Positions 5,619-24,502 of a DNA stretch of 64,000 bases are shown in pieces (position 1 is the stretch's first letter; each line of letters starts with the position of its first letter). Origin of the DNA: a virus; the IMG/VR virus record IMGVR_UViG_3300017917_003742, positions 1 to 64,000 of that record; one strand, written 5' to 3'. The notes beneath the pieces are model-generated. The model searched no databases. It had not been told where the DNA came from and was given only the letters and a program-made list of their open reading frames with translations. The translations under genes and the position numbers were made by a program.

Positions 5619-6098
5619 TTATTCTGCAACAACTAAACTATATCTTAAACTTTTTACAGGAGATACATAGTGTGCTGCATCATATGGAAAGTCAATATAT
5701 TGCCCTGCACTGTCAAAAATCTTTACAAGATTGTGATCAATGTCTTCGCAAACAAGACCATCCACATCTGAACTAGTCAAAGTTATTAGGTGCAGTTTTC
5801 GAATAGAATATGAATCACGGTGCGGTGCAATATAATCACCGGGTTCATATTTTTGAACTTGAATAAAATTATAAAAGTCTTTTAAGTCAGGGTCAAAATC
5901 AGCGTCACGAAAAATAGCTTCTTTTAACTCGTCTGACATGTGACAATCTTTCAGTGTTTTGAAACGACTACACACATTTGGAATAAGAGATTCATGCTTG
6001 TCAGCACCTTCTCTTGGCATAAAAAGATGATCGTGTTGTTTTACAAGATTGATTATCTCGTCAACATTTCTTATAAAATTTGGAATTGTTTTAATCAT
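5619..6098 (-). CDS. 2OG-Fe(II) oxygenase
   Basis: YEPGDYIAPHRD (HxD), distal H in AAHYVSPV, RYSLV. Confidence 0.85.
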   Translation of the reverse strand: MIKTIPNFIRNVDEIINLVKQHDHLFMPREGADKHESLIPNVCSRFKTLKDCHMSDELKEAIFRDADFDPDLKDFYNFIQVQKYEPGDYIAPHRDSYSIRKLHLITLTSSDVDGLVCEDIDHNLVKIFDSAGQYIDFPYDAAHYVSPVKSLRYSLVVAE

Positions 6099-6486
6099 AA
6101 TTATTTTTTATATATGTAAAAAATTTCAGTTCTCTATCACATAGAGGAAACCAGAATGCATTCAGTAATTCCTTTTTACCCGGTTTAACATTTCCATTAG
6201 TTATTTCATCTTCAAAAAGTTTAATCAACTCATCTTTTAAAAGACGCTTATCGTATCGTTGTTCATGAAACTCACACTTTTTTAAAATGCTTATAAAAAT
6301 ATTCATGAAATCTTTTTCAATTAAGCGATCATTAAATTCAAAGCTTAATTGAGCGTCGTTGAAACTATTAATTATTCCTGTTAAATCGTTTTTTATAAAA
6401 TTGAATAACTTTTTTGTAAAGGGAAATTTTTGTATATCATCCATTACATTTTTGCTACTCTCGTTAACCTTTTTAAAGTATGTCAT
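6091..6486 (-). CDS. small protein resembling a tail sheath (gp18) C-terminal fragment
   Basis: KKLFNFIKNDL...LSFEFNDRLIEKDFMNIFISIL matches the sheath motif RRLF..L...I....LFEFND..TR..F.N.....L (by eye). Confidence 0.5.
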   Translation of the reverse strand: MTYFKKVNESSKNVMDDIQKFPFTKKLFNFIKNDLTGIINSFNDAQLSFEFNDRLIEKDFMNIFISILKKCEFHEQRYDKRLLKDELIKLFEDEITNGNVKPGKKELLNAFWFPLCDRELKFFTYIKNNYD

Positions 6487-6979
6487 AATTTTCCCAATGT
6501 GTAAACTTACAATCGCCTTGGACCTTGTTCAAGAGAATTGCTCCAAGTTGAAATCCGCTTTGAGGAAATTCTTTTGGTGTTGGCATTGTAATTATTTCTC
6601 GTATAAAAAATCCAGAGTCCCGAACATCTTTTAATCTTGCCTTAAGAGCAAGCAAATGATTTAATGTAACAAGCGTTACAATATTATCGCTGATTTTCAT
6701 GGAATGTTCAATGCACTTACGATGCAAGCTCCAAGGAAAGTTTGTGATAATCCAATCGACCTTTTCGTTGTATTGAAAGAAATCTCGTCCCTCGTCAATC
6801 TCGCACCAATCAGGATTAACTCCAATTTGTAAAAATGCATTATAAAATGCTCCTTTTCCTCGGCAAGGGTCTAAGCACTTTTTTCCATAAGGATTGTAGT
6901 GAGTGACAATTTTCTTTGCAAGAGATTCAGGAGTGTAAACTCGATCATCGCCGCCTTTTGGAATCAGAGTTTTTTTCAC
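6473..6979 (-). CDS. N6-adenine DNA methyltransferase-like protein
   Basis: YTP, LDPCRGKGAF (motif I), DFF, IITNFPWS (variant motif IV); GTG start. Confidence 0.75.
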   Translation of the reverse strand: MKKTLIPKGGDDRVYTPESLAKKIVTHYNPYGKKCLDPCRGKGAFYNAFLQIGVNPDWCEIDEGRDFFQYNEKVDWIITNFPWSLHRKCIEHSMKISDNIVTLVTLNHLLALKARLKDVRDSGFFIREIITMPTPKEFPQSGFQLGAILLNKVQGDCKFTHWENYDIL

Positions 6980-7083
6980 GGTAAAAATTTAGAGTATTCA
7001 ATTAGTTTAGAAAAACACAGTATCAAAGAAATCAATGATACTGTGCCTAAAAATAAATGTGAATATAAATCAGCTTTGTCCAT
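6976..7083 (-). CDS. 35-aa predicted membrane peptide
   Basis: MDKADLYSHLFLGTVSLISLILCFSKLIEYSKFLP; TAATG and GTGA overlaps with both neighbours; not in the ORF track. Confidence 0.6.
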   Translation of the reverse strand: MDKADLYSHLFLGTVSLISLILCFSKLIEYSKFLP

Positions 7084-8378
7084 TAATCAAAATAGAAATA
7101 TTTGACGCTGGTAACACCTTCCTTATCGTTTACAACGAGAGCGGTTTGACGCTGACGAGAATTATAACCAGAGTTGTCTGCATGTCGGCATCCGCCTACA
7201 AGAGTTGGGAACATAAATCCTTCAACATTTGTAAGCTCATAGCTTTCGCTGTGATGTTGGTCTGCACTCAAGTAATATTTTCTTTCCACTCCTATCATTT
7301 GTTCAGGCTTTGCCATGAAAAGATTGTTGATGTAATTTTCTCTCTGTTTACCCGGTGCTGGAAGGCGATCTTTTGCAACAGATGAGTAACCGTGTTCCAT
7401 AAGGAAAAGACTGTTACCAACATTAAAAGTGATGAAACGTTTGTTTGTAATGTCAAACTTGATTCGTTTATCGCCTTTGAAATAAAGTGAAAGCATTCTT
7501 GCTAAAACATAATCACCTAATGCTGAATGGTTTCCGCTACATGCTACAACAGAAACACTGTTTGTTGAGCTTAAAATTGTTTTAACAAAATTTACAAGAG
7601 AATCAAATGCAACCTCAAGTTGTTCTTCGGCAATTGGATGCGCCTCAAGCTTTGTTCCTTTGTCGGTAAATCCTGTTAAGGTGTGAGACATGTCGCCAAG
7701 AAGAAGTAGTTTAACCTCTTTGTAACAACCCCTGCGAATTTCGGCTGCTGCTTTTCGGCCATAATCTGCAACAGTGTCTTTGGTCTTTTCAATGTTCCAT
7801 TCTTTCTGATTGTAAAGATAACGCTCATGTGCTACAAGACCATAATGCCAGTCACTAAGACCAAGAAGAAGAGTGTCCTTGCAGTCGCGTGGAGTTTGAA
7901 CTGGACGAGGCGGAACATAAGGAGGAGGTGTCCATTTTTGAAGAATCTGCTCAAACGGATCAATTTGAAGAGTCTTCATTGCACGCCATTTTTCAGCATC
8001 CTCTTGAGTTTCTTTCCAGTCACGTTTTTCAAACTTTTGAAGAATGTTAAATTTCTTAGAAGAAATTGCATCGTCAACAAGAGCTTCTTCGCTTGAGTTA
8101 CTAATAGTCTCTTCTGTGAATGGAAGAGTGTCATGTGTAATATTCATTACTTTAAGAACATGACGAATAACGTCTACTGGAATGCTCAATTTAAGTGCAA
8201 TCTCGTTTGCAGTCAAACCTCCAGCAATGCTGCTGTAAAGCTTAACAATCAAGTCAATCGAAGTTTTTGTAAAAACGAGATTTTGTCCGAATTTCTTTTC
8301 CGTGTGGAAAACGTATTTTTGAGTTGACGAATTATAAGTGTAATGCTTGTTCGTCTTGAGAGAGTTTTCTTTACTCAT
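7083..8378 (-). CDS. calcineurin-like metallophosphoesterase/nuclease with N-terminal HTH-like region
   Basis: SDWHYG, LLGDMSH, SGNH, EHG, SADQHH motifs; LTANEIALKLSIP helix-turn-helix-like. Confidence 0.8.
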   Translation of the reverse strand: MSKENSLKTNKHYTYNSSTQKYVFHTEKKFGQNLVFTKTSIDLIVKLYSSIAGGLTANEIALKLSIPVDVIRHVLKVMNITHDTLPFTEETISNSSEEALVDDAISSKKFNILQKFEKRDWKETQEDAEKWRAMKTLQIDPFEQILQKWTPPPYVPPRPVQTPRDCKDTLLLGLSDWHYGLVAHERYLYNQKEWNIEKTKDTVADYGRKAAAEIRRGCYKEVKLLLLGDMSHTLTGFTDKGTKLEAHPIAEEQLEVAFDSLVNFVKTILSSTNSVSVVACSGNHSALGDYVLARMLSLYFKGDKRIKFDITNKRFITFNVGNSLFLMEHGYSSVAKDRLPAPGKQRENYINNLFMAKPEQMIGVERKYYLSADQHHSESYELTNVEGFMFPTLVGGCRHADNSGYNSRQRQTALVVNDKEGVTSVKYFYFD

Positions 8379-17102: not shown

Positions 17103-17867
17103 ATGAAAAACGTAAACGAGACAAAACTAGAGGCACTTAATATCGCCAAGCAATTTAATGCTGGCGATTTAGATGAGCTATTAAATAATGCACAAAAAGT
17201 TCTAAACTTTTTAGAATATTATGTAGGAGACTGCTCTAATAAACTACAAGAGAAAAAAGAAAAATTTATTGAGGTTGTTGACCGACAACTAAATCAGTAT
17301 AATTACAAAGACCCTCTCAGAAAAGAGTATGCGCGTCATGCAATTGTAGCAGATTATATTGATAAGCGTTTAAAGACTGGAATTCAAGAGCTTTGCAATC
17401 AGATTGATGAAGAGGTTGGCGAGGAATACGCAACAGTAAAACCTGAATATAAGACTGGTGAAAAGATTGCAGAGGTTTTCATGAGCGGTCTTGTACCCAC
17501 CGAAAAAGATTCTGTTTTTTCTAGTGGTGACTATGTTTCACCACCCGAAGAAAAAGATACCACCTGCAAAGAAGCTGGTCATAAATCAAAGATAATTTTA
17601 ACTCACAGAGAAGAAGTGGATAAAGAACTTTTAAAAGTTCTAAACGAAAAGATTCAAGAAGACATTCAAATTTCTAAAGATAATCAAAAAAAGAAGTCAT
17701 GTACACCATTAGTTGATTCTTTCATAAAGCAGCAAGATAAAAAGGCGGGTAGTCCTATTGTTATAGGTAGCTCGGCAATTCAACCAATTACTGATTTCAA
17801 ACATATATCAAAGGATGTTCTTGAAAGAATGCATAAAATTTCAATAAGCGAAGAAAATGGAATTTAA
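17103..17867 (+). CDS. hypothetical protein
   Basis: 254-aa ORF in operon. Confidence 0.75.
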   Translation: MKNVNETKLEALNIAKQFNAGDLDELLNNAQKVLNFLEYYVGDCSNKLQEKKEKFIEVVDRQLNQYNYKDPLRKEYARHAIVADYIDKRLKTGIQELCNQIDEEVGEEYATVKPEYKTGEKIAEVFMSGLVPTEKDSVFSSGDYVSPPEEKDTTCKEAGHKSKIILTHREEVDKELLKVLNEKIQEDIQISKDNQKKKSCTPLVDSFIKQQDKKAGSPIVIGSSAIQPITDFKHISKDVLERMHKISISEENGI

Positions 17868-18570
17868 TAAACAATACTGGATAGAACAATTAACTAAAGA
17901 AGTTGGTTTAGAGGGAGTTTCTTATGAGGAACTCTCAAACCACTTTGTAAACTTTGACTCATTTTTTGGAAATGACGAAGACTCTCCTACAAGCAGAGTT
18001 AATGCTAAAGAATACGTTGATCGTCAATTAGTTGAGATAGAAAAGCAATACGAGGAATTCTCTCAAACTGAAAACGCTCTTGAGTCATTTCCTTTAGCAC
18101 CTTCAAAATCTTTAACACTTGATTACAACGAATCCGACATTTTCAGCCGACTTCACAATGTTGCAAATGAAGGTTTTAAGGAAATGCCCTTTGAACAAAA
18201 TTATCAAGATAATAAAATCTTGTATAACGGTGTTCCGCTTATTATTCCTGTTCAACAAAACATTCAACGCGAAGATATTGGCTACTACGAAGTTTTTGTT
18301 GAAGGTCGTGTGTTTGTTGTTGCAATAAACAAAAAGAACGGTGACTTAAAAACAGAAGATCAAATTAATCATGTCAAATCAACAAGTTACTTTGTAGAAG
18401 AGATCAATCCCCTAAGATTAGTTGGAGGAGAAGAAATCATTTCTTACTATCAGTTCGCAAATATGATTGAAGAAATCGTTCGTAGAAAAGGAACCGTTTC
18501 TGTTGATGTGAAACTTAAAGACAATGTTAAAACTGAATTTGATGGAGTGAAACTAGATAATTTCCTATGA
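17857..18570 (+). CDS. hypothetical protein
   Basis: 237-aa ORF; ends KLDNFL (clamp-binding-like tail). Confidence 0.75.
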   Translation: MEFNKQYWIEQLTKEVGLEGVSYEELSNHFVNFDSFFGNDEDSPTSRVNAKEYVDRQLVEIEKQYEEFSQTENALESFPLAPSKSLTLDYNESDIFSRLHNVANEGFKEMPFEQNYQDNKILYNGVPLIIPVQQNIQREDIGYYEVFVEGRVFVVAINKKNGDLKTEDQINHVKSTSYFVEEINPLRLVGGEEIISYYQFANMIEEIVRRKGTVSVDVKLKDNVKTEFDGVKLDNFL

Positions 18571-19355
18571 TTAAAAGTTTCGAATTTAAAACAGGATTTG
18601 TAATGGGCTACGATCATTTAAAAGGTCGAGAGTTCAAATTTAATGATAAGCTGAACGTGTTGTTTGGCAACGTTGGTTCGTGCAAAAGCACTGCATTAAA
18701 AACAATGGCAGCATATTGTGGCATTCGCACAGGAGGATGGAGCACCATTTCTGAACCTGCCCAGCTTGCATACGATAGCATAAAGCATTTTCCTTTTTGC
18801 TATCGTAACTTGTCTCCAAGCAATGTTGATGCAATTGTAGATTGGGACGGAACTCCGTCATTCTTCAACGACAGCGAGGCACTCTCTAAAAACGATAATA
18901 CGTGGTTTTTTAGCAATGCAAAACAGAGTGCGGACGGAATTACCACAGAAGCAGAACAAATGGAAATTTTGGCAAGTAAACCGTCTTCTGGACAGTATCG
19001 TATTCACAAGATCAACAAGATTATGAAGGTGATTCAAACACCGCCAAATCTTCTCCTTGTTCCACCATACATTAACAACAAAGTTCTTGCTCAAATAGAA
19101 GTCGAATACATTAAGAGTCTTCCAAGAAACGGTAAGATTACTCTTCTTTTAGATGAGCCTGAAAAGGCACTTTCTATTCCAAAGCAGATTGAATTGTTTG
19201 ATGTTATGGTAAAACTGTCAGAACACTTTCAAATTATTATGGCAACTCACTCTCCTTTTATTCTTGAGTATAAGAAAGCAAATCTTATTGACGTTACTCC
19301 CGGTTATGTTAAAGAATGCCGAACTCTGATAAAAAATATCGGAAAAGGTAAGTAA
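18567..19355 (+). CDS. ABC-type (AAA_21-like) ATPase
   Basis: GNVGSCKST Walker A variant, SSGQ signature, LLLDEPE, ATHSP. Confidence 0.85.
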   Translation: MIKSFEFKTGFVMGYDHLKGREFKFNDKLNVLFGNVGSCKSTALKTMAAYCGIRTGGWSTISEPAQLAYDSIKHFPFCYRNLSPSNVDAIVDWDGTPSFFNDSEALSKNDNTWFFSNAKQSADGITTEAEQMEILASKPSSGQYRIHKINKIMKVIQTPPNLLLVPPYINNKVLAQIEVEYIKSLPRNGKITLLLDEPEKALSIPKQIELFDVMVKLSEHFQIIMATHSPFILEYKKANLIDVTPGYVKECRTLIKNIGKGK

Positions 19356-19361
19356 TTTATT

Positions 19362-20012
19362 ATGCCAGAAAAACTAGATAGGTTCTATTATAGAACCGTT
19401 AAGAAGAATTGTCTTTATTGTGGCTGTGAACTTAAATTAAATAATAATAGAGATGTGGAACGAAAAACCTTCTGCAACAGAAGTCATTCTGCATACTGGA
19501 ATAAAGATAATAGGAATTTTACTAATAACAAACCTCACAAGGAAGAGACTAAACAGAAAATCAAAAAATCTGCAAAGGCGAGAGAAAATTGGAAAGGTGA
19601 TAAAAATCCTAATTACAAAGGAAAATTAAAGAGAGGTAAACGTCTTTCTGAAAACCAAAAAGAGTTTTTACGGAAGAGAATGTTAGACGGAGGGGCTTTA
19701 GTTGCTCGAAAAGGTAATAAACGGAAAAGTTCTATTCAGATAAAAGTTGAAAATTACCTGACAAGTATAGGTATTTCTTTTATTGATGAATATAGACTCA
19801 ATAATAGATTAGTTGATATTTTTATAGAGCCTAATATAGTTATTGAATGCGATGGAAATTATTGGCACAGCTTTCCGCACATTAAACTCAAAGACGAGAA
19901 ATTGAATTCTTTTTGTCGAGAAAATAATATCGAAATAATTCGTCTTACGGAAACCCAAATAAAACAATCCGAATTTATACAAATTTTGGATAAATATTTT
20001 AATGGGAAATAA
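19362..20012 (+). CDS. putative homing endonuclease (NUMOD3 + Vsr/DUF559-like nuclease)
   Basis: CxxC/FC zinc motifs, KPHKEETKQKIK (NUMOD3), VDIF...IVIECDGNYWH, IIRLTE. Confidence 0.8.
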   Translation: MPEKLDRFYYRTVKKNCLYCGCELKLNNNRDVERKTFCNRSHSAYWNKDNRNFTNNKPHKEETKQKIKKSAKARENWKGDKNPNYKGKLKRGKRLSENQKEFLRKRMLDGGALVARKGNKRKSSIQIKVENYLTSIGISFIDEYRLNNRLVDIFIEPNIVIECDGNYWHSFPHIKLKDEKLNSFCRENNIEIIRLTETQIKQSEFIQILDKYFNGK

Positions 20013-20142: not shown

Positions 20143-20643
20143 TTAACAAACCTTTTTACTCAAATTACAAAATAAATCTTTTAAAGAGTTTTCGTCAAGA
20201 AAACTCTTTAATTTTTTAGGGTCCACAGGTGTTTTATTTTTGAGAAGCAACACTTCGTCAATAACACTACCCTCTAGTTCATTTACAAGAGCCTGATTTG
20301 GAATATCAGTTTTCTTTTTTAGGAAGAACAATTTGTTTGTAACACTTTTGAGTTTCTTACAAATTTTATTAAGAAAGTTTGTTAATTTCTCACGATCATA
20401 ATATTTGAATAGTTCGTGAGATTCAGAAAAAAAGTTGTCATGAAAAAATAACAAGTCTTTGTCGTTTGTTATTCTGTCGCCAAATCGTTTAACAAATAGG
20501 TAGAAAATTATTTTCTTTGCATTGCGATCTAGTTTAGAAAGCAACTTGTATTCGTATAAACAATCAACGATTTCTTTCTCGATAAGAAATAAGAATCGGT
20601 CTATGTTCTCAAAGCTGTATAGCATAAGATAATATAACCTCAA
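20143..20643 (-). CDS. hypothetical protein
   Basis: 166-aa ORF (start uncertain). Confidence 0.65.
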   Translation of the reverse strand: MRLYYLMLYSFENIDRFLFLIEKEIVDCLYEYKLLSKLDRNAKKIIFYLFVKRFGDRITNDKDLLFFHDNFFSESHELFKYYDREKLTNFLNKICKKLKSVTNKLFFLKKKTDIPNQALVNELEGSVIDEVLLLKNKTPVDPKKLKSFLDENSLKDLFCNLSKKVC

Positions 20644-21794
20644 CTGAACTCACATTCAAGTTCGTTTTTGAATGCTTGTTCTCCAGCCAATTTTATAAAA
20701 TCTTCTTTCCATTTTTCATCTCTATCGGGAATGTCACTCCATATTATTTTATTCTTATGAAACGTTTCGTTGTTATAAAGTTTTATAAGAATTGAATCCT
20801 CGGTTTTTGGGGTTCCTGAAATTATAAGTTTATTAGATTTTGAACTTTTTACAACAGGTAAGCACGCTTTCAAAAATTGTTCCTTATCATCTTCTTCACA
20901 AAGATCTATATTATCTAAAATTAATAAACTGTGATTTTTACCTCTTATAATATTTGTGTTTAAACTAGAAGTGCCTATTTTACTACCATTTGAGAAATAT
21001 ATAGCGTCTGATCGTTGTTCAATTATTTTAGGAAAAAGAGGATTATTAAAGAAATAACAGGTTCTTCTTAATAATTCGTTGTAATGATGTGCATTCACAC
21101 AGTTCATGGTATAAATTCCTGCGGAAAAATCTTTATTGAATAAACAACAGTGTAATGAGAATAATACGTGAAGCATAGACATTCCTGATTGACGACCTGC
21201 TATAGTTACGTTCATTTTATTTTCATTCCAGTCTTTTAATATTTCTTTTTGTTTATTATACAATTTTATAGAAGAAGACGCACCATCATGTGTGTTCCAT
21301 TTGACATGATTTTCGATAAAATAAACTATATCGTTTTTACACTTTTCATATTCATCGGATGATGAATTGTCTATAACTACTCTGTATTTTTCGATTAAAT
21401 CTTTTGGGGGACCGTTGAGACGAATGTTGATAATTCCGTTATAATAATCTTCACGAAGAATAGCATTCTCCTTTAATTGCCACATAAGTTCAAGATAGGC
21501 ACTTTCCCACTTGCATGTAGTTAATTCTAGAATTTCTCTCTTAAAGTTTTCTTTACCGTATTTCTTAAGGTCTTCTTTTAATTCATTAGAAGAACCATAG
21601 TATTTCTTCCAGTCGCTTTCTTTGACCACGCGACGACTTCTAGTTTTACCTTTTAGTGGAGGTCTTTTCTGATTGCTCCAGAATTGTTTTTTACCGATAT
21701 ACTTTTTACCATTAGACAGACAAGTGATACGATAAACAAAGCCAAACCACTCACTAATATCTTCTGGAACATTTTCCCAAGAGTTTTCATTCAT
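20640..21794 (-). CDS. GIY-YIG nuclease fused to a degenerate large-terminase (gp17) ATPase domain
   Basis: FGFVYRIT..NGKKYIGKK; then KCKNDIVYFIENHVK, LYNKQKEIL, GRQSGMS, IRGKNHSLLILDN, ISGTP, WSDIPDRDEKW...FKNELECEF. Confidence 0.8.
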   Translation of the reverse strand: MNENSWENVPEDISEWFGFVYRITCLSNGKKYIGKKQFWSNQKRPPLKGKTRSRRVVKESDWKKYYGSSNELKEDLKKYGKENFKREILELTTCKWESAYLELMWQLKENAILREDYYNGIINIRLNGPPKDLIEKYRVVIDNSSSDEYEKCKNDIVYFIENHVKWNTHDGASSSIKLYNKQKEILKDWNENKMNVTIAGRQSGMSMLHVLFSLHCCLFNKDFSAGIYTMNCVNAHHYNELLRRTCYFFNNPLFPKIIEQRSDAIYFSNGSKIGTSSLNTNIIRGKNHSLLILDNIDLCEEDDKEQFLKACLPVVKSSKSNKLIISGTPKTEDSILIKLYNNETFHKNKIIWSDIPDRDEKWKEDFIKLAGEQAFKNELECEFS

Positions 21795-21803
21795 ACTGGA
21801 TAT

Positions 21804-21989
21804 TTACTTCCGTTTTTTGCGCTTTCTAGTCTTTTTGGTTTTTACTTTTCCTCTTCTGGAATATGTTCCCATTATAAACGGAGTTCGTGGATCATCTGTA
21901 GGATAAGGACCATCAGAACCTAATACTCCTGCATCAGTCATACCGTCTTCTAAAAACATTTTTACTATTTTGTCAAAATTTTTAGTCAT
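21804..21989 (-). CDS. small basic protein with capsid-targeting-like N-terminus
   Basis: MTKNFDKIVKMFLE; Lys/Arg-rich tail; TAAATA upstream. Confidence 0.65.
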   Translation of the reverse strand: MTKNFDKIVKMFLEDGMTDAGVLGSDGPYPTDDPRTPFIMGTYSRRGKVKTKKTRKRKKRK

Positions 21990-22446: not shown

Positions 22447-23099
22447 TGAATTATTCTAATGCACTACGCGAACAAGAAATAATTAAAAATAGACACGATA
22501 GTTATTTTGATGATTTATGGGAAGTTATTAATGGGCGAGCATCCACTCCTGTAAAAGATTATGAAAAAAGGCTTGCAGATTCTATAATGAATGAATCTAA
22601 TAAACAGATGAACACTACTGAATGTAAAACTATATCCGCAGTAAATTATTTTCCTTCCGATAATTTTTACGACAAGATGTTCACTAACTCTTTTGAATCA
22701 GATGTGAAACTTTTATCGAATTTTGAAGCAACAACAAATCTGTGTCTTTCTGGAACAATTGAAAATATCAACTACTCTTATCAGACTCTTTGGCCGAAAA
22801 AGGATACTTCTCAGAAGAAAGTATATAAAAACTTTAATATTGATGATTTTAAGTATAGAGACGTTGCAAAGAGAAATATAAAAGCTGTTTTCCAAAAAAG
22901 AAAAATAAAAAACAAAGAAGAATGTATATATATTGTTGATAATCTTTCACCAGAAGGTGTAGAAATTTTTATTAAAAAATATGTTAATAGAGAAATAAAA
23001 TGCTCTATACTAAAAATGTTGAGAAAGCTAGAAGCTTCTGATTGTACTTTTAATACACAAGATTGTGTATTTGAAAAATGGCAGAAGACATCAGAGTAA
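22443..23099 (+). CDS. hypothetical protein resembling a degenerate N-terminal half of major capsid gp23
   Basis: LWEVING..PVKDYEKRLADSIMNE; SGTIENINYSY; VAKRNIKAVF; REIKCSIL in gp23 order (by eye). Confidence 0.35.
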   Translation: MMNYSNALREQEIIKNRHDSYFDDLWEVINGRASTPVKDYEKRLADSIMNESNKQMNTTECKTISAVNYFPSDNFYDKMFTNSFESDVKLLSNFEATTNLCLSGTIENINYSYQTLWPKKDTSQKKVYKNFNIDDFKYRDVAKRNIKAVFQKRKIKNKEECIYIVDNLSPEGVEIFIKKYVNREIKCSILKMLRKLEASDCTFNTQDCVFEKWQKTSE

Positions 23100-24502
23100 C
23101 ATACGATAAGAAGAGTGGATATTTAAAATGTTCACCTAACGTTTTTAAACTGGTAAGAGAAAAGTTCTCTATAAAGAATCCATCTTATCAATCTAGGAAG
23201 TTTGTTCCTAGATTATATTCTATCACGCCTGCGGGTGCGTTTCAGGTAGGAATGTGGAACGAGATTGAACATTATATTCGTTCTCTTAACATTCCTGTTA
23301 AAATAACATTATCAGACGAGTTTAAAAATCAATTTAATCCCCAAACAAACATCAAGGAAATTTCTAAGATTGATGGATTCACTTATTATGATTATCAAGA
23401 GGATACACTAAACGAGTTTATCAAGAATGGTAGAGGTATATCACTTGTTGCTACTGGTGGCGGTAAAGCACTGATTGCAGGTGGCTTGTGTAAAACATTC
23501 CTCGATCACTATCCTCATTTCAAGATATTAATCATTGTTCCAAACGTGTCGTTGTTAAATCAACTTTACTATTCTTTCCTAGATGAATTTGGAATAAGTT
23601 GTATATCTCGTTGGGGAGATGGTAAGCTTCCTGATTTATCTCAAAATATTCTCATTGCTAACTCTCAAATCTTAACAAGTGACATCAAAGCAACACTAGC
23701 TGTTGTCGGGAATTATGATGTTGTAATTGTTGATGAAGTTCATACCATTAACGAGAAGAAAAACAAAATCAGCAAAGTGGTTCATAATATAACCACACCT
23801 TTCAAGTTTGGACTTACAGGAACACTACCAGATAGTCTTATGGCAAGCTGGAATGTTATTGGCAAGATTGGTCCTATTGTTTATGAGAAGACTTCTTATG
23901 AATTACGTAAACAAGGCACTATTACAGATGTCAAAATCAAAATGGTTTTATGTCAACATGAACGTGTGCCTGTGTTTCTAACTGGTCCAAATCCAACTGA
24001 CAAATATAACGCAGAATACGATTATGTTATAAACTACGCTCCAAGAAACGATGTTATTAAAAAGCTTTGTGACAAGCTTGTAGGAAACACATTGATTGTT
24101 GTGGACAGATTGGATTATATCTCAGTCTTGAAAAAATTATTAGAGGGTGGAGACAAAAAGATTTTCGTTATCACAGGCGAGACTCCAACAAGTGAGAGAA
24201 CAGAAATCCAGAACACTATGGACAAAGAAGATGGAATCATTTGTATTGCCATGAGCAAATGCTTTTCCACTGGTATTTCGATTAAGAATCTTCATTATGC
24301 AATTTTTGCATACATGGGAAAAGGTGGTGTTAAAACAGTTCAAACCATTGGCCGAACTGTTCGTAAACACAGTAGCAAAGAAGTAGCTGTGATTTTTGAC
24401 ATAGCTGACAACTTAGAATACTCTCGTAAACATGCAAAAGAAAGACTCCAAATATACAAAGAGCAAAAAATTGAGTATTCTATTACAAAAATAAAAATTT
24501 AA
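23078..24502 (+). CDS. uvsW: UvsW-like SF2 DNA helicase
   Basis: YDYQ, ATGGGK, IVDEVH, GLTGT, FSTGISIKNL, QTIGR. Confidence 0.9.
   Translation: MAEDIRVTYDKKSGYLKCSPNVFKLVREKFSIKNPSYQSRKFVPRLYSITPAGAFQVGMWNEIEHYIRSLNIPVKITLSDEFKNQFNPQTNIKEISKIDGFTYYDYQEDTLNEFIKNGRGISLVATGGGKALIAGGLCKTFLDHYPHFKILIIVPNVSLLNQLYYSFLDEFGISCISRWGDGKLPDLSQNILIANSQILTSDIKATLAVVGNYDVVIVDEVHTINEKKNKISKVVHNITTPFKFGLTGTLPDSLMASWNVIGKIGPIVYEKTSYELRKQGTITDVKIKMVLCQHERVPVFLTGPNPTDKYNAEYDYVINYAPRNDVIKKLCDKLVGNTLIVVDRLDYISVLKKLLEGGDKKIFVITGETPTSERTEIQNTMDKEDGIICIAMSKCFSTGISIKNLHYAIFAYMGKGGVKTVQTIGRTVRKHSSKEVAVIFDIADNLEYSRKHAKERLQIYKEQKIEYSITKIKI

Follow-up and report, generated by a model that had tools for sequence, protein, structure and literature searches.

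A predicted SegE-type GIY-YIG nuclease fused to a catalytically dead terminase ATPase fold in an uncultured T4-like phage

What might a phage do with the ATPase half of a terminase that has lost its catalytic residues and is joined to a nuclease? This question is raised by a minus-strand gene in a 64,000-nucleotide (nt) stretch of viral DNA, positions 1 to 64,000 of IMG/VR record IMGVR_UViG_3300017917_003742, which we call the window. The source record is a 75-kb viral contig with an estimated completeness of 29% and belongs to an uncultured T4-like phage. The gene occupies an uninterrupted reading frame of 384 amino acids (aa) from 20640 to 21794 and encodes an N-terminal GIY-YIG nuclease followed by the ATPase fold of a large terminase subunit (TerL), and the comparisons described here indicate that its product is a real, selected, two-module accessory protein. 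Its parts are as follows, in window coordinates:

20640..21794, minus strand: whole 384-aa open reading frame (ORF), composed of GIY-YIG nuclease, linker and dead TerL ATPase module; stop codon at 20640-20642.
21429..21767, minus strand: SegE-type GIY-YIG catalytic domain, aa 10-122, identified by Pfam PF19835, similarity to T4 SegE, invariant alignment columns and a ratio of nonsynonymous to synonymous substitution rates (dN/dS) of 0.03-0.08.
21609..21668, minus strand: basic insertion, aa 43-62 (KRPPLKGKTRSRRVVKESDW), within the GIY-YIG domain; not found in T4 SegE and of low confidence in the structural model.
21360..21428, minus strand: low-confidence linker, aa ~123-145; truncated alleles of relatives stop here ('...EKYRVK', then the stop codon).
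20643..21359, minus strand: complete TerL ATPase fold of the T4 gp17 type without nuclease domain, aa 146-384; member of the 'DNID' family.
21177..21197, minus strand: Walker A remnant GRQSGMS, aa 200-206, in which Met stands in place of Lys and Ser in place of Thr; the fused family keeps R, Q, G and S without exception.
20904..20924, minus strand: Walker B remnant LILDNID, aa 291-297, with the catalytic Glu replaced by Asn; D-N-I-D is invariant.
20808..20819, minus strand: coupling (C) motif SGTP, aa 326-329; G-T-P in the dead family versus S/T-T-P in active TerLs.

The N-terminal domain matches the Pfam family SegE_GIY-YIG at aa 10-122 with an E-value of 3.5e-36, and this match (PF19835; 124.6 bits against a cut-off of 25) extends over profile positions 10-123 of 123, which places it in the SegE subfamily. 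The hallmarks of the fold are present as GFVY (aa 18-21) and KYIG (aa 31-34), and in an alignment of 21 GIY sequences G18, Y21, Y32, G34, R86 and N119 are invariant and E87 is nearly so; by analogy to I-TevI, we take the Arg, Glu and Asn among these residues to have catalytic roles. Identity of this half to T4 SegE is 30% (E 7e-9). No solved structure was matched by the GIY-YIG profile in a sequence search, and a structure search with the whole model was filled with ATPase matches, so that the GIY assignment rests on sequence. An AlphaFold model of the fusion (predicted template modelling score, pTM, 0.62) comprises two confident domains with a low-confidence linker between them, and the predicted layout is thus I-TevI-like, with two domains on a flexible linker; according to the same model, the basic insertion at aa 43-62 is probably disordered.

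The C-terminal half is recognized by the Pfam family Terminase_6N at aa 199-383 (E 9e-8; 32.4 bits against a cut-off of 22), and phmmer against the Protein Data Bank (PDB) aligns aa 146-331 to residues 132-315 of T4 gp17 (2O0H, 3CPE, 3EZK). In this alignment, RQLGKT of gp17 pairs with RQSGMS, which sets K166 and T167 opposite M205 and S206, and IDE of the wild-type gp17 chain pairs with LDN, which sets E256 opposite N295. A third altered motif is the coupling motif, which reads SGTP in the fusion and (S/T)TP in active TerLs. The fold itself is predicted with a local distance difference test score (pLDDT) above 90 for aa ~141-384, its comparison with the gp17 ATPase domain in Foldseek gives an E-value of 2e-18, and VIA-align superimposes 245 residues of model positions 137-384 on gp17 98-357 with a Z-score of 26.6 and a root-mean-square deviation of 2.1-2.2 Å, as befits a TerL ATPase fold. 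The protein ends ('...ELECEFS', then the stop codon) one residue past the E-x-E-F with which the ATPase domain ends in the TerL of this clade, and Pfam detects no Terminase_6C match in the fusion, from which the RNase H-like nuclease domain is absent. What a working TerL needs is therefore missing at three points, with Met205 in place of the Walker A Lys, Asn295 in place of the Walker B Glu and no nuclease domain, while the P-loop Arg-Gln, the adenine-binding Gln, the Walker B Asp and subdomain II with its well-conserved W-x-D-I-P-x-R-D-x-x-W block are kept. Because three catalytic motifs are replaced family-invariantly and the nuclease half is lost, the fusion is predicted to be unable to act as the packaging ATPase. 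The initial annotation, which had read the gene as a GIY-YIG nuclease fused to a dead terminase ATPase domain with both Walker residues replaced and the C-terminal RNase H-like nuclease gone, is borne out by the agreement of Pfam, phmmer against gp17 and the AlphaFold, Foldseek and VIA-align comparisons, including a terminase profile match above its cut-off. An ESM Atlas search returned only generic TerL N-domain clusters, and phrog_5989 was rejected as the family of the fusion because this generic family of TerL ATPase halves is a better match for the real TerL.

If the fusion is not the packaging ATPase, where is the real one? Within the 75-kb record the fusion is the sole Terminase_6N match. 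A 90-kb record (G002) that is collinear with the source record gene for gene encodes a canonical 566-aa TerL with SRQIGKS, VDEF and STP motifs; the last bases of the source record align to G002 at ~21.8 kb and the G002 TerL starts at 20,705, and from this synteny the source phage's own TerL is expected to lie ~1.1 kb past the contig end. The separate intact gp17 envisaged at the outset thus exists in a collinear relative, whereas that of the source phage itself is only inferred. The TerL of this clade, which has no close cultured relative, is ~36% identical to the nearest cultured TerLs. The dead module shares 31% identity with the clade's TerL, about as much as with cyanophage gp17, and is best seen as an old paralog rather than a recent duplicate. 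As an aside, a T4-like genome of 236 kb (G003, behind locus L005; CheckV 100% complete) that carries the GIY nuclease gene without the ATPase module yielded no match to Terminase_6N at E <= 0.001; a fractured TerL or one of another family could account for this, and the apparent gp55 homologue of this genome (500 aa, named by its position beside uvsW) looks as if it holds a large insert, possibly an intein.

Is the fusion maintained by selection? The same architecture recurs in five full-length relatives (P0001-P0005; 382-387 aa, 43-65% identity), and more fused copies lie on independent viral contigs from different samples (L002, L082, L084, L085). In a six-sequence alignment, R201, Q202, G204, S206 and D294-N295-I296-D297 do not vary and a hydrophobic residue occupies position 205 throughout, the Walker A pattern across fused relatives being RQSG[MLIV]S. 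For the unsaturated pair L082 and L002 (synonymous divergence, dS, 0.34-0.48), dN/dS is 0.07 for the GIY half and 0.24 for the ATPase-like half; values for the GIY domain range from 0.03 to 0.08, and the ATPase-like module has kept a frame of 245 codons open in a genome of 31-33% GC. Both halves are under purifying selection, the ATPase-like half being less constrained. Its protein divergence stands out, with nonsynonymous divergence (dN) between L082 and L083 of 0.03-0.04 in the flanks and 0.37 in the module, and between the window and L084 of 0.05 and 0.14 outside and 0.47 within it, though dS exceeds 1 for these two and most other pairs and module exchange, diversifying selection and relaxed constraint look alike there. 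As far as these comparisons go, the ATPase-like module is optional and exchangeable, with protein evolution ~10x faster than that of its flanks. Because the motif changes are invariant in the relatives and the module is under purifying selection, neither decay nor an assembly artefact accounts for the gene.

How tightly, then, are the two halves bound to each other? All relatives of the locus were retrieved via GIY similarity, and nuclease-free empty sites lie outside this sample; within it, the GIY gene is present and strongly conserved in every relative. Three states occur at one syntenic site, which is shared even by the distant relative L002: the two halves are fused (window, L002, L082, L084, L085), encoded by two adjacent genes in the same order (L083 and L188; P0027 matches the ATPase-type ORF of this split form), or reduced to the GIY gene (L003, L004, L005, L086-L091). 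The GIY-only genes stop at the domain junction, with 137-141 aa and the ending '...EKYRVK' in L003, L004, L005 and L086-L089 and with 156 aa in L090 and L091, and a DNA alignment shows that they differ from the fused loci by a clean insertion or deletion of ~735 nt. Fused and GIY-only alleles are interleaved in the GIY-domain tree, and the latter are under strong purifying selection (dN/dS 0.08). The GIY domain outdoes its neighbours in conservation, with 89% identity between the window and L004 compared to 61% for the downstream ORF. In other GIY relatives (P0014, P0017-P0019), C-termini of NUMOD3 type replace the module. The recurring adjacency and fusion in the same order argue for a functional link of the two halves. 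Within one clade of collinear genomes, the pseudo-ATPase is therefore fused, adjacent or absent, a natural allelic series that ties it to a DNA-cutting activity and offers ready-made comparison alleles for asking whether the target of such mimics is DNA, the packaging motor or Avs/Upx immunity.

The ATPase-like half has a wider family around it: 2,719 relatives were retrieved by an exhaustive phmmer search with aa 141-384, and we surveyed the best 150 representatives of clusters formed at 50% identity. Within these best 150, the matches that lack the Walker A Lys in a contiguous ATPase domain are all 236-377 aa long and without nuclease domain, save for the tandem double P0026, and every contiguous TerL of at least 480 aa keeps both K and E, the apparent exceptions being ATPase domains split by a large insert. 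Catalytically dead TerL ATPase halves are thus recurrent, the Lys-less short forms amounting to ~27 clusters. In the domain tree, 17 dead representatives form a monophyletic clade (support 0.98) that unites all fused and both split forms with the stand-alone proteins P0025, P0028, P0029, P0032, P0042, P0044, P0059, P0125 and P0129, the fused forms being scattered within it. Its signature is a hydrophobic residue for K, N for E (DNID), GTP for S/T-T-P and a module of ~240-250 aa, all of which the window's module fits; the dead forms outside this clade may be independent inactivations. A scan with alignment A10 retrieved 78 ordinary TerLs and two dead loci, compared to 79 ordinary K/E TerLs only in the control scan with alignment A9. 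When related loci were sought, P0025 and P0028 had no match in viral contigs, P0175 none in metagenome contigs and P0042 none in genome contigs or cultured phages; P0028/P0175 is encoded on a contig of 258 kb and P0042 on one of 159 kb.

One stand-alone form could be viewed in its genomic context. P0037 (270 aa, Walker-dead, outside the clade of 17) is encoded in LR756500.1, a 462-kb uncultured megaphage, immediately downstream of the true TerL. This TerL is fractured (L186:2315-8748) into an N-terminal piece that ends in ARQTGK and runs into an apparent intein start, and a second piece of 628 aa in which an apparent intein remainder is followed by the rest of TerL with a Terminase_6N match and Walker B DE; the C-terminal tail of the latter is read as nuclease-type, although the record gave no Terminase_6C match. 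Between the two pieces lies a free-standing endonuclease gene of the MTES_1575 type, and a second endonuclease gene (DUF7487 and MTES_1575) follows the paralog. LR756500.1 is direct evidence that one genome can carry a dead paralog together with a TerL whose active site is intact, and it offers a second association of a dead paralog with mobile nucleases.

Two further members of the family are unusual in their architecture. P0032 (295 aa, DNID family) carries another N-terminal extension of ~50 aa; only its N-terminal ~45 residues matched other loci, and this extension alone recurs on large viral contigs (L097-L102), so that the pseudo-ATPase combines with more than one N-terminal module. P0026 (612 aa, on a 2.4-kb contig from the Joint Genome Institute, JGI) consists of two tandem Walker-dead ATPase domains with SRQTGIS…IIIEDFA and then SRETGLT…IIIKDFA.

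What could a dead ATPase fold contribute to a nuclease? The N-terminal module is, by prediction, an intact SegE-family GIY-YIG nuclease fixed at one syntenic site near uvsW throughout the clade, and a presumably flexible linker would join it to a complete TerL ATPase fold stripped of its nuclease half. This dead ATPase would sit where other Seg-type endonucleases carry a DNA-binding domain and would act by binding rather than catalysis, directing or restricting the nuclease to DNA or to a component of the packaging machinery that is normally contacted by the TerL fold. We tentatively favour this reading of the ATPase-like module as a targeting or regulatory, non-catalytic binding module for a Seg-type nuclease, as a reasonable possibility that we would stop short of calling probable; if the module does target, it would represent a kind of specificity module that is new to GIY-YIG nucleases. 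Because it is optional, exchangeable and ~10x faster evolving than its flanks, a role in conflict with co-infecting phages or host immunity is suggested rather than one in core replication or packaging. A bolder version, which we consider a long shot, holds that the pseudo-terminase docks on the packaging machinery or on terminase-sensing immune receptors and that the fused form delivers the GIY-YIG nuclease there. If so, the docking nuclease would be a weapon that cuts a rival phage's DNA at the rival's own motor, and the fused, split and absent alleles would reflect an ongoing arms race.

Several observations weigh against a targeting or regulatory module. Given that GIY-only alleles are under strong purifying selection, the nuclease seems to work without it. 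The module, in turn, probably has a function of its own that does not depend on covalent fusion, because stand-alone dead TerL paralogs form a wider family; in the one stand-alone context seen (L186), P0037 has no GIY-YIG neighbour. The model shows no confident interface between the GIY and ATPase-like domains, and relaxed constraint, instead of conflict, could be the reason why the module diverges more strongly at the protein level.

The split and stand-alone forms, the optional and fast-evolving nature of the module and the lack of a confident domain interface in the model would all sit well with two independent functions joined by chance, in which a pseudo-TerL mimics terminase against the Avs1-3/Upx sensors (as a blocker, sponge or non-triggering copy), an ordinary Seg-type GIY-YIG gene lies upstream and loss of a stop codon creates the fusion. 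It is further in keeping with such a mimic that the TerL ATPase domain by itself suffices to activate EcAvs2 and Upx (PMC13601566). Chance joining is harder to reconcile with a fusion kept in at least five diverged lineages and with split forms that keep their adjacency in the same order. The mimic itself faces the difficulty that EcAvs2 contacts the ATP in the terminase active site via bridging ATP (PMC13601566), a feature that a domain without Walker A Lys probably does not offer, so that it may not bind. The known TerL-like small proteins (vs.8, Ksap2) trigger Avs2 instead of blocking it, which speaks somewhat against a simple decoy, and inhibition has been shown for no known TerL-like small protein. 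All in all, independent functions seem to us rather unlikely, if well worth keeping in mind.

We regard it as improbable that the protein is a packaging-interference weapon, in which the dead ATPase would join or cap the portal/TerL/TerS motor of a rival phage or satellite as a poison subunit and the fused form would bring along a DNA-cutting nuclease. The whole ATPase fold is kept for such a role, including subdomain II, which carries the motor and portal contacts of TerL in T4, the Arg-Gln of the TerL-specific P-loop is conserved, and presence/absence polymorphism with fast evolution would fit an arms race of self versus non-self; nevertheless, the phage would have to spare its own motor, and there are stand-alone forms without any nuclease. 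That the module is a decaying remnant of a partial gp17 duplication carried by a homing endonuclease, or an assembly artefact, we find barely credible. Homing endonuclease genes do cluster at the locus, and the megaphage, where a dead copy adjoins a fractured TerL and is bracketed by endonuclease genes, hints at a route by which copies of this kind could arise. Yet the 245-codon frame is open in an AT-rich (31-33% GC) genome despite 31% identity to the clade's TerL, dN/dS is 0.24, the replaced motif residues are invariant across 43-65% identity, pLDDT exceeds 90 and the same fusion occurs on independent contigs from different samples. The targeting or regulatory module thus stays the reading that we tentatively prefer. 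For the three roles put forward in the initial annotation, a decoy for terminase-sensing Avs proteins, a tether of a nuclease to the packaging motor and a dominant-negative weapon against co-infecting phages, the computed evidence speaks neither in favour nor against.

In which setting does the gene lie? Its closest neighbours and the nearby uvsW gene are:

20143..20625, minus strand: conserved 160-aa ORF; begins 14 nt past the fusion stop and is present in fused, split and GIY-only loci.
21804..21989, minus strand: 61-aa ORF, 9 nt upstream of the fusion gene; no family match, very basic C-terminal tail.
23078..24502, plus strand: uvsW helicase (474 aa), given for context; divergent from the fusion gene and ~1.3 kb away.

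The 61-aa ORF is probably the first gene of the fusion's transcription unit. Visual comparison of the translations suggests that it corresponds to a 176-aa gene of L003 with an internal stretch missing; a longer form is also found in L004, and an extremely basic C-terminal tail (…RRGKVKTKKTRKRKKRK) is common to the window, L003 and L004. The late motif that the initial annotation had placed before the fusion gene did not hold up: the upstream sequence reads AAGTAAATA and not TATAAATA, so that the T4 late promoter is absent there. Neither this motif, with two occurrences in the whole window, nor its GTAAATA variant, with 8 occurrences against 13.6 expected, is enriched, and a scan for sigma-70-type promoters gave background level only.

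Further downstream, a 216-aa ORF (19362-20012, plus strand) has weak matches to NUMOD3 and REase_MTES_1575 (Vsr-like) and is an HNH or homing endonuclease by PHROGs; it lies in a stretch of ~790 nt, not found in L003 and L004, between an ABC-type ATPase gene and the 160-aa ORF, and looks like a free-standing homing endonuclease insertion. An endonuclease of the MTES_1575 type likewise flanks the dead TerL paralog of megaphage LR756500.1. Beyond it, a conserved convergent pair (17857-19355, plus strand) consists of a 237-aa ORF overlapping a 262-aa ATPase of ABC/OLD type (Pfam AAA_21) and is also present in L002, L003 and L004. This ATPase matches the defence ATPase subunits AriA, PtuA and GajA (PADLOC, E down to 2e-12), and as a defence-like ATPase beside the nuclease operon it may be functionally linked to it. 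In L004 (record G002), uvsW (5751-8249, minus strand) encodes 832 aa with a LAGLIDADG intein (Hint and Hom_end) that is absent from the window's 474-aa uvsW. The neighbourhood of uvsW is a mobile-nuclease hot-spot in this clade.

How does the locus compare to known systems? In T4, segE lies between inh and uvsW as a free-standing gene for a GIY-YIG homing endonuclease that cleaves in uvsW (PMC2988022). The window's gene resembles SegE and the other free-standing Seg endonucleases of T4-like phages in a GIY profile match over the whole model, in its place near uvsW and in its order of catalytic domain, linker and C-terminal module. It differs in that this C-terminal module is a dead TerL ATPase fold and not a small DNA-binding domain, in a basic insertion of ~20 aa in the GIY domain and in its orientation, being divergent from uvsW at a distance of ~1.3 kb where T4 segE lies directly upstream. 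Unlike a sporadic selfish element, the GIY gene occurs in each of the relatives, which were retrieved via GIY similarity, and surpasses its neighbours in conservation. The likeness to the ATPase domain of gp17 and other TerLs (2O0H, 3CPE; Terminase_6N) extends over the whole fold, gp17 98-357 with a Z-score of 26.6; by contrast, the module has no nuclease domain, has its Lys, its Glu and the first residue of the coupling motif replaced, and is optional in its clade. Stand-alone dead paralogs such as P0037 differ from it in turn, given that the window's module is fused to, or in relatives encoded beside, a GIY-YIG nuclease and belongs to a monophyletic 'DNID/GTP' family of its own.

A search of the literature returned nothing specific on a GIY-YIG/terminase fusion, terminase decoys, inactive TerL paralogs or terminase pseudoenzymes. 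The closest published relative in kind is T4 vs.8, an uncharacterised stand-alone homologue of the terminase ATPase domain, and the authors of that work proposed that non-terminase activators of the sensors could be anti-defence proteins (Evans et al. 2026, PMC13601566). Like the window's module, vs.8 is a paralog of the terminase ATPase domain without the nuclease half in a T4-like phage; unlike it, vs.8 keeps Walker A GKS and Walker B DE and is an unfused protein of 219 aa, whereas the module has neither the K nor the E. The two are only distantly related (BLASTP E 0.26; hhalign probability 61%, E 8e-5 over 118 columns), and the module falls outside the vs.8 family. The fusion is a new architecture built from two known kinds of component, stand-alone TerL-ATPase-like proteins having already been published with T4 vs.8, which is evidence that paralogs of this sort occur in cultured phages and interact with immunity based on terminase sensing.

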